Shown here piece after piece: positions 14,684 to 54,500 of a DNA stretch of 64,000 nucleotides (position 1 is the first letter of the stretch; the number at the start of each line of letters is the position of its first letter). Below the pieces are notes generated by a model, which ran no database searches, had not been told where the DNA came from, and worked only from the letters and a program-made list of their open reading frames with translations. Where the stretch lies: positions 2,852,001 to 2,916,000 of the forward strand of contig CDPCPM010000074.1 of NCBI GenBank assembly GCA_976551045.1, read 5' to 3'. The translations under genes were made by a program, and so were the position numbers. This DNA comes from Glaucostegus cemiculus (lineage: Eukaryota).

Positions 14684-52250
<37,567 letters not shown>

Positions 52251-54500
52251 AAGATGAATGTAAAGCGTGTGATAAAGAGTAAAATTATGGGTGTCAGTGT
52301 TCCTGTGTTTTTTTTAAAAAAGGCCATAAAGTATCTACAATAGTCAGCCATGACTCTGCCTCCCCTCTTGGGGATGTGGGGCTGGAACAGCAGATGTCAC
52401 TTGGGACACTGGGATGGAACAGCAGGTTTCAGCTACTTCTACAAACTTTTTTTGTTAGTGTGACTTTCATATCATTTGCTTGTATGTACAGTGAACTTTT
52501 TCTGAATATTTATTTTAAAGTTCCTGTGGGGGAGGGGGAAATTAATCATATGTTCCATTACTGAATTGATCCTTGAATGAATTTAAACAGGAGAAATTGT
52601 CCCAAATAACGTTCCTTGATTATCATCAATGTAATTTTTTTTTCACTACTTTGTTTCTTCTGAGGCACTCAGTTCTGGGAGCACTCTTCTCTTTCCCCCC
52701 ATCCCCATCAATGCTTTGGAGTTTAATAAGATTTAGATTGGTTTGGTGCAAGTGCTGCTGTTCTAGTCCCAGAGGGAGAATTTTTACTTACCTTTACATC
52801 TGATAAAGATGAAAAAGAACCTGGAATGTTAACTGCATTCTTAAGATCTTGCTTTAGTTACAGCACAAAAATTCTTGGGAAGATTTTAGAAAAAAATCTT
52901 CACTGCTCATTCTTGCAAGTCTGGAAATAAATTTCTGTTTAACTTTTCAACTCTTGCTGAATGTTGGAATGCTGGTCCACAGGATTTACTGACTTTTTAA
53001 TTCCACTGTTTATTTGACATTTTTGGAAACTCTCCCATACAATGGCAGAAAAGTTATTGACTTCATTGGGGGGGAAAAAAATAGAAGTGGAATAGTATGC
53101 AAAAGTGCCCTTGCAAGAATTGGAGCCAAAGTTTCCTCTTTTGTCTTTCCAACAGATTCAAAATTTACTGTGCTTTTTTTTAAAAAAAAACTTACTGTTC
53201 CTTCTCTTTTTATCTGCTGTACCTGAGCAATATATTCAGCAAGAACAACATTGTGCTTAATCCTATAGGCCTTTCATCATTTCTAATGGAGAAAAGGCTA
53301 ATTTGCATATGAGGTAATATGTGATATGCAGATTGTAGGTAGTGATAAGAAGGTATCAGCACTATTCAAACACTTTTTACTCATTGAGAAATGGACAAAG
53401 GATGTTAACAAGAATGATACTAAATAAAATGGAATACAACAATATCTTTATTGTTTACTGGCATGATAGGTAATCAGATTGAATGGTGTTCAGAATGTTT
53501 TATTGTGCAACTCTCTAGGTAAAACATAAGTCTACATATAGCTTGACAATCTATTTTTAAGCATCACTATCCTGTAGTTTTAAGCAACTTTTGTCCAGTT
53601 CAGATTTTAAAGTAATAGTCCTACCCATTGCTGAAAGGCATGAATCATACTGTTTGTGTATACCTCTCCCATAATTTTCCCAGTTTATTACCAATTTGGA
53701 CAGATTGATTCAATTTGCTGTTAAATTGTCTTTACAGAATACTGTATTGTAATATTACATAAAGAGCAATGGGCATTAAGAAATTTCCTAGAATTAAAGG
53801 ATTTTGTAAAAGGCCACCTAAAACCAGGCTAATGATGCTTTATGTTTTATCCAAACTTGAACAATTAGCGCAAGTTACTAATGTTTGCACAGACATTCTT
53901 TTTGGGGCTTCTGTATTTTTAGCTGCTAAAACAGCTAGTCCTTTTGGCTTTTTGCCCATGACCTGGTATTCTAATACAAGCAATTCGTATTTTAAAAAAA
54001 AGTATATCAGAAGCTTTTGTTGAGAGCTTATGCAAATGTTACATCAAAACAATTGCTTAAGTCGTGTTTGATAGGAAAGGGGTCGGATCTTAAATGGCAA
54101 GATCGCTGCCTTTATTGGATGACTTTAAATGAAAACTACCTTTTTGGTTTTTTTTGCATTACACATTATGTAATTTAGTTGGGTATCCAAATATAAAAAA
54201 AATCATGTGTAAGTGAATGTCTGTTAATTTTCCTTCCAAATTATTTATAGCTTAGTTTATTAATCCAGTTATGTTGAAAGTTCCTTTTAGTCTGACTGCC
54301 TTGCACATAAGTATCCATGAGACAAAACTGAAAATGAAAACTGTTTATTGACTGACTTAGATTTACTTCTGCTACTTGTATTTAATTCAGGTTACAGTTT
54401 AGTATAATATCCATGATAGATTTTAGAGTTGTGGAGCATTCTGAAAAATGCCTTAAAGATAGTGTGAAGCTATAAACAGTGATTCAACTTCCATTATCAT
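52251..54500 (+). other. Probable UBE3A 3' UTR (3' end uncertain)
   Basis: U/A-rich sequence after the stop with no recognisable retroelement until about 54800. AATAAA at 52926-52931 (followed by U-rich sequence) and at 53423-53428. Confidence 0.6.

Follow-up and report, generated by a model that had tools for sequence, protein, structure and literature searches.

The 3′ untranslated region (UTR) of UBE3A in the window analysed here, a stretch of 64,000 nt from Glaucostegus cemiculus (GenBank assembly GCA_976551045.1, contig CDPCPM010000074.1, positions 2,852,001 to 2,916,000 of the forward strand), contains a long-range RNA helix of 17 bp, the core of which is also present in a distantly related vertebrate. 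It is reasonably probable, with considerable room for doubt, that this helix is under selection as a long-range 3′ UTR duplex of the Staufen-bound kind, likely tuning mRNA stability and compacting the UTR. The helix itself is well supported, and its function is what we infer from it. All positions given below are those of the window, and the features are collected in Table 1.

The UBE3A Gene and Its Terminal Exon

The gene on the + strand of the window had been taken for UBE3A in an earlier reading made without database searches (the sequence-only reading), and this identity is borne out by the large exon, which matches human E6AP at 790 bits (E 5e-237), and by the stop codon, which ends at 52250. 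The 2.85-Gb genome also has a second UBE3A-like gene, located on contig C29 and scoring 530 bits to human E6AP; with 790 versus 530 bits, the window gene is therefore the closer of the two to human UBE3A. The C29 paralogue (L008/L002; 17223631–17224851 and 17240606–17240724) has an open large exon, 61% identical to that of the window, and an intact last exon, and it is probably an old duplicate that was lost in mammals. In humans, UBE3A dosage is tightly constrained: loss of the gene leads to Angelman syndrome, and its excess is linked to autism.

Contigs from related organisms place the helix within the transcript. Seven of 24 runs, from six of ten organisms, were compared, while organism A yielded no contigs in either of its two runs, a result that carries no weight in either direction. 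None of the runs is on record as RNA; three of them (X5, X7, and X9) were taken as RNA from an exon junction and by a guess. The contigs of these three runs, from three related organisms, join the upstream exon at 52128 and are therefore spliced; both arms of the helix are found together in each record, so that both arms lie within the 3′ UTR of one mRNA. The X5 contig extends to at least 53300.

Upstream of the terminal exon, the penultimate coding exon (50423–50566, 144 nt, in frame) is flanked by an inverted repeat of 27 nt (50090–50116 and 51897–51923; 89%, −31.5 kcal/mol). Judging by its placement, this repeat could loop out the penultimate coding exon; no counterpart of it was found in L006, the orthologous locus described below.

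Table 1. Features of the UBE3A terminal exon and 3′ UTR in the window
Feature	Position	Strand	Remarks
Last UBE3A exon, coding part (end of HECT domain, stop TAA)	52130..52250	+	Spliced to upstream exon in contigs of 3 runs
5-bp hairpin just 5′ of the 5′ arm	52361..52374	+	Hairpin predicted at the same place in L006
Tandem copy 1	52368..52399	+	27/32 identical to the single unit of L006
5′ arm copy 1, partner used in this genome	52377..52393	+	Core 52379–52393 identical in L006
6-nt helix extension, junction of the two copies	52398..52403	+	Fully paired in this genome alone among those compared
Tandem copy 2	52400..52431	+	28/32 identical to the single unit of L006
5′ arm copy 2, minor partner in this genome	52409..52425	+	Partly in a predicted local hairpin, P ~0.5; sole intact partner in organisms B, C, D, and probably I
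Enclosed-loop motif with two UGUA	52479..52491	+	Identical in L006; core also in L003
Enclosed-loop AU-rich motif, AUUUA core	52502..52518	+	Identical in L006; core also in L003
Partner of the 6-nt extension	52749..52754	+	Differs in L006
3′ arm	52755..52771	+	14/15 core bases as in L006; one change, G-C to G:U
First conserved poly(A)-signal position, 30 nt 3′ of the 3′ arm	52802..52807	+	GATAAA here; AATAAA in B, C, D, and L006
Second conserved poly(A) signal, AATAAA	52926..52931	+	Aligned with L006 position 3171

The Long-Range Helix

Three duplexes had been proposed in the sequence-only reading, and all of them were recovered as described. In the main helix, 52377–52393 pairs with 52755–52771 at all 17 positions (about −31 kcal/mol), with G:U pairs at G52381:U52767 and G52384:U52764, and 361 nt separate the two arms. 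After a 4-nt bulge, the helix is extended by 52398–52403, which pairs with 52749–52754 at 6/6 positions, bringing the whole duplex to −39.3 kcal/mol. A second copy of the 5′ arm (52409–52425) can pair with the same downstream strand (52755–52772) over 17 bp with one bulged G (−26.8 kcal/mol). The 6-bp extension requires U52402, a position occupied by C in all five organisms with contigs (B, C, D, H, and I).

No other uninterrupted helix in the first 737 nt of the UTR is as strong as the main helix (−30.6 kcal/mol), and none of 150 dinucleotide shuffles matches it; their best helices average −14.9 kcal/mol and reach −23.6 kcal/mol at the lowest. On the + strand of the 64-kb window, 274 helices have 13 bp or more and span no more than 1 kb; the main helix ranks third among them, and both helices that outrank it are intronic. 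The fold of 52350–52800 is also more stable than any of 100 shuffles (z = −2.93). As the wobbles of the helix are G:U when read on the mRNA, its sense-strand form is the more stable one (−30.6 versus −21.8 kcal/mol for the opposite strand in the window, and −28.4 versus −24.1 kcal/mol in L006). It is very likely that the helix forms in cells. A search of the window against Rfam at the gathering score gave no match anywhere.

Two intronic structures were observed as well: a perfect 23-bp hairpin with a 4-nt loop (33520–33569), present as a single copy in the window, and a 21-bp helix (41893–41913 with 42109–42129), which is probably repeat-derived, since its sequence has several look-alikes in the window.

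Conservation of the Helix in a Distant Vertebrate

Orthologous terminal exons were sought in metagenome contigs with a degenerate last-codon pattern that is blind to the arms, and five loci were obtained; the last-exon pattern gave no locus in either genome contigs or viral contigs. At one of the five, L006, the last-exon peptide shares all of its residues with human E6AP (39/39), and the locus appears to derive from a bony vertebrate, probably a tetrapod. In the last exon, the window and L006 have the same base at 22 of 37 third codon positions, as compared with 21 of 37 for the teleost-like locus L003.

L006 has a single 5′ arm, identical to copy 1 at 15/15 core positions, and a 3′ arm identical at 14/15, with a spacing of 342 nt. 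All 15 core pairs are kept at the same place, and the sole difference is a G-C pair in L006 where the window has G:U. The helix is the best in its UTR (0/150 shuffles as good). The sequence enclosed by the arms is far less similar, being 49% identical over 52432–52754 and 37% over 52530–52740. The sequence-only reading had proposed two 15-mers, one for each arm, as present in the human UBE3A 3′ UTR, the comparison here being with L006 in place of the human sequence. L006 carries both of these 15-mers, with a predicted pairing probability of 0.86–1.0, so that the proposed deep conservation stands; its extension to jawed vertebrates at large does not, since the teleost-like L003 is without the arms.

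L006, one of the five metagenome loci, is the only deep orthologue found to have both arms. In L003, L004, L005, and the paralogue L002, the arm cores match at no more than 10/15 and 9/12 positions; L004 offers 420 nt of UTR, too short for a 3′ arm, and L007 was judged by eye. Neither arm is present in L002 or L005. L003 retains both loop motifs in spite of having no arms, and no helix above chance was found in its UTR (103/150 shuffles as good). One duplex in L003 was considered as a substitute and discarded, as 80 of 100 shuffles gave one equally good. On the reverse strand of L007 (934–1452), a UBE3A-like coding sequence ends in ~42 nt, including the stop codon, that run on into the UTR as about 12 head-to-tail repeats with decay.

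Could the two arms simply be separately conserved motifs, such as protein or microRNA sites, whose complementarity is irrelevant? We consider this unlikely. A two-sided change in register is seen at none of the pairs, which leaves covariation undemonstrated; there is one one-sided change, and the arms are near-invariant among the few sequences compared. Such a record is compatible with separate motifs, as is the fact that other blocks of 9–17 nt in the UTR are equally conserved without pairing. The 3′ arm also contains a 6-mer that is a putative match to the miR-214 seed; such a site, however, cannot explain 12–15 invariant bases. The window and L006 have eight exact colinear blocks of at least 9 nt in common, among which the arm blocks pair at −19.7 kcal/mol and the next best pair reaches −7.6 kcal/mol; none of 20,000 shuffled sets attains −19.7 kcal/mol. 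Moreover, the one tolerated change retains a G:U pair on the sense strand. The case for the helix thus rests on block complementarity, a wobble-keeping change, and sense-strand asymmetry, rather than on covariation. As judged from the compared sequences, the pairs are kept between distant vertebrates above background.

Duplication of the 5′ Arm

The two copies of the 5′ arm arise from a 32-nt tandem duplication (52368–52399 and 52400–52431). In this genome, the predicted ensemble is dominated by copy 1 in three folding windows (P = 0.97–0.998, versus 0.002–0.027 for copy 2), and the copy-2 fold, the helix of which has one bulge after 11 bp, lies ~4 kcal/mol behind.

The fate of the copies differs among related organisms. 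In B, C, and D (3/3 contig-yielding runs), both copies are present and copy 1 carries the same five substitutions (52377, 52378, 52384, 52390, and 52393), the last three of which affect core pairs and are derived when compared with L006; copy 2 and the 3′ arm are without change among the differences listed, beyond which C or D may have private changes. These shared changes represent one inherited set and not independent events. In run X5 of organism B, for which 40 of 66 places of difference are listed by position, apparently complete to 53006, substitutions affect 5/17 positions of copy 1, 0/16 of copy 2, and 0/17 of the 3′ arm, in which insertions may still be present. The excess in copy 1 over the rest of the alignable UTR (35/598) is significant (Fisher P = 0.003), and, at the background rate, 33 unchanged arm bases have P = 0.14. 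In silico, the B-type substitutions weaken the copy-1 core from −30.8 to −13.8 kcal/mol, and copy 2 becomes the partner through a bulged helix of −24.5 kcal/mol (P ~0.56 in the background of the window). An insertion that would make copy 2 a perfect partner in relatives was considered and rejected, there being no indel in 52369–52446 of B and I.

Organisms H and I were compared at the 5′ arm region, and the 3′ arm was compared in B, C, and D. Organism I has eight differences in 52369–52438, as many as B, two of them among those listed. Organism H has nine differences in 52362–52544, of which eight are listed; none falls in copy 1, and a new break appears in copy 2 at 52412. The H-type substitutions bring the copy-2 helix to −17.6 kcal/mol in silico. 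In the last coding exon (52130–52250), no X5 substitution is listed, as against ~6% of alignable UTR sites; synonymous change in this exon would thus be unusually low in X5, the numbers being small.

The sequence-only reading had suggested that the two mutually exclusive folds might serve this lineage as a regulated two-state switch. Both copies can indeed pair with the same downstream strand, U52767 suits either of them (G:U with copy 1 and A-U with copy 2), and none of the changes listed for this genome and H falls in the 11-nt core of copy 2. The idea is nevertheless very improbable. The two folds are not similar in energy, nor are they both populated by prediction, with copy 2 at P ≤ 0.027 here and at ~0 when the H substitutions are modelled; the alternative partners are not both conserved, as B, C, and D have a broken copy 1, copy 2 is weakened further in H, and there is one copy alone in L006. 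The loops enclosed in the two states are also nearly the same, and no trigger is evident. Copy 1 was kept in this genome and in H, and copy 2 in B, C, D, and probably I, so that a single partner arm, and not two states, is what the element needs. Rather than a switch, the second 5′ arm is likely what remains of a duplication that gave redundancy: the 32-nt duplicate would have provided a spare arm, after which each lineage would have kept one copy. Keeping one of two copies would also be expected if a single motif were needed, as in the reading of the arms as separate motifs. In this RNA structure, the redundancy created by the duplication was resolved by the loss of different copies in different lineages.

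Poly(A) Signals and 3′-End Formation

No AATAAA or ATTAAA is found 5′ of the 3′ arm in the window, where weaker variants occur at 52271, 52278, 52325, and 52576. Both conserved signals lie downstream of the 3′ arm, and isoforms ending at them would therefore include the whole helix. At the first of them, position 52802 is G>A in 3/3 runs (B, C, and D). Between the two signals, blocks 52822–52832 and 52860–52868 are identical in L006 and may, by their position, be downstream processing elements.

With regard to this arrangement, the helix might act in 3′-end formation and set the choice between a short and a long UBE3A tail, closing 30 nt 5′ of the first signal and drawing the UGUA of the loop nearer. 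This role seems unlikely, if less so than that of two unrelated motifs. The signal position is kept in L006, B, C, and D, and the loop holds two conserved UGUA; mouse Ube3a 3′ ends have been described as cell-type-dependent (PMC5898910), although the mouse clusters cannot be placed relative to the helix. A weak hint may be seen in the X7 contig, which breaks at ~52840 as depth falls from 31 to 17, whereas the X5 and X9 contigs cross the site unbroken, and contigs cannot show RNA ends. Against such a role, this genome combines the weaker GATAAA with the strongest helix.

Relation to Known RNA Duplexes

The closest known class is that of the long-range duplexes bound by STAU1. According to the main text of PMC10164587, these have a mean span of 252 nt and tend to be AU-rich and symmetric with ~20 bp (median of 20 paired bases, class median of 45% AU), and the transcripts that carry them tend to decay more slowly. 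The UBE3A helix is likewise an intramolecular 3′ UTR duplex near the start of the UTR, with a span of ~360 nt (above 100), and its stem is symmetric and unbroken for at least 12 bp (17 bp here and 15 bp in L006). It differs in having a GC-rich core of 15–17 bp, with five A-U pairs out of 15, which is below the class median, AU-richness in the STAU1 class being a tendency and not a rule. UBE3A is not named in the main text of that study, which contains no conservation analysis.

Conserved 3′ UTR helices with a Staufen2 signal have also been reported under the name RLM-Fam, such as an 18-bp helix in NUTF2 and an 11-bp helix in PTPRU (main text of bioRxiv 10.64898/2026.10.24.761493). Like these, as described there, the UBE3A helix is short, conserved, and located in a vertebrate 3′ UTR, with so little variation that covariation is weak. 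The RLM-Fam examples are backed in that text by binding or reactivity data, in contrast to the predicted helix of UBE3A. UBE3A was not found in the main text of that study.

In UBE3A itself, the alternative 3′ UTR of Ube3a1 in intron 11 acts as a microRNA sponge, as reviewed in PMC7279237. Both cases place regulatory information in the 3′ ends of the same gene; the sponge, however, has an intronic 3′ end and a sequence-based mechanism, whereas the helix lies in the UTR of the terminal exon. The portion of the KARR-seq data that was searched (PMC11255127) holds one UBE3A contact, between 130–196 and 425–533 of NM_130839; if these are transcript coordinates, as they appear to be, this contact lies near the 5′ end and is not the main helix. 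UBE3A is absent from the searched supplements of PMC8657808, PMC11310781, PMC3467077 (other than file 1), and PMC7566578 (other than file 3). In the papers and supplements searched, no binding, probing, or crosslinking record for the arm pair was found, and the arm motif occurred in the full texts of unrelated papers only. At the level of titles and abstracts, no structure in the terminal UBE3A 3′ UTR was found, and genome-wide catalogues and duplex tables, such as those from hiCLIP, may list the helix as an unremarked row.

Proposed Function and Implications

In the favoured reading of a selected, Staufen-bound kind of duplex, the helix would loop out a segment of ~360 nt that carries two conserved motifs. 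By analogy with the STAU1 class, a Staufen-type protein could read the helix and raise the stability of the mRNA, which we regard as possible but slightly less probable than the contrary. More tentatively still, the helix, kept since the split between cartilaginous and bony vertebrates, may be an unrecognised cis-element that sets UBE3A dosage, gating the enclosed AU-rich and UGUA motifs and the poly(A) signal behind them.

Long-range 3′ UTR duplexes are already common and known as a class, of which the UBE3A helix is a new member. With 15 bp, known coordinates, and very deep conservation, it is directly testable. If the proposed role in dosage is true, the reciprocal loss of duplicated arms would amount to a natural swap experiment that reveals selection for pairing, and the helix would be a point at which oligonucleotides could act on a gene that causes disease both when lost and when in excess.
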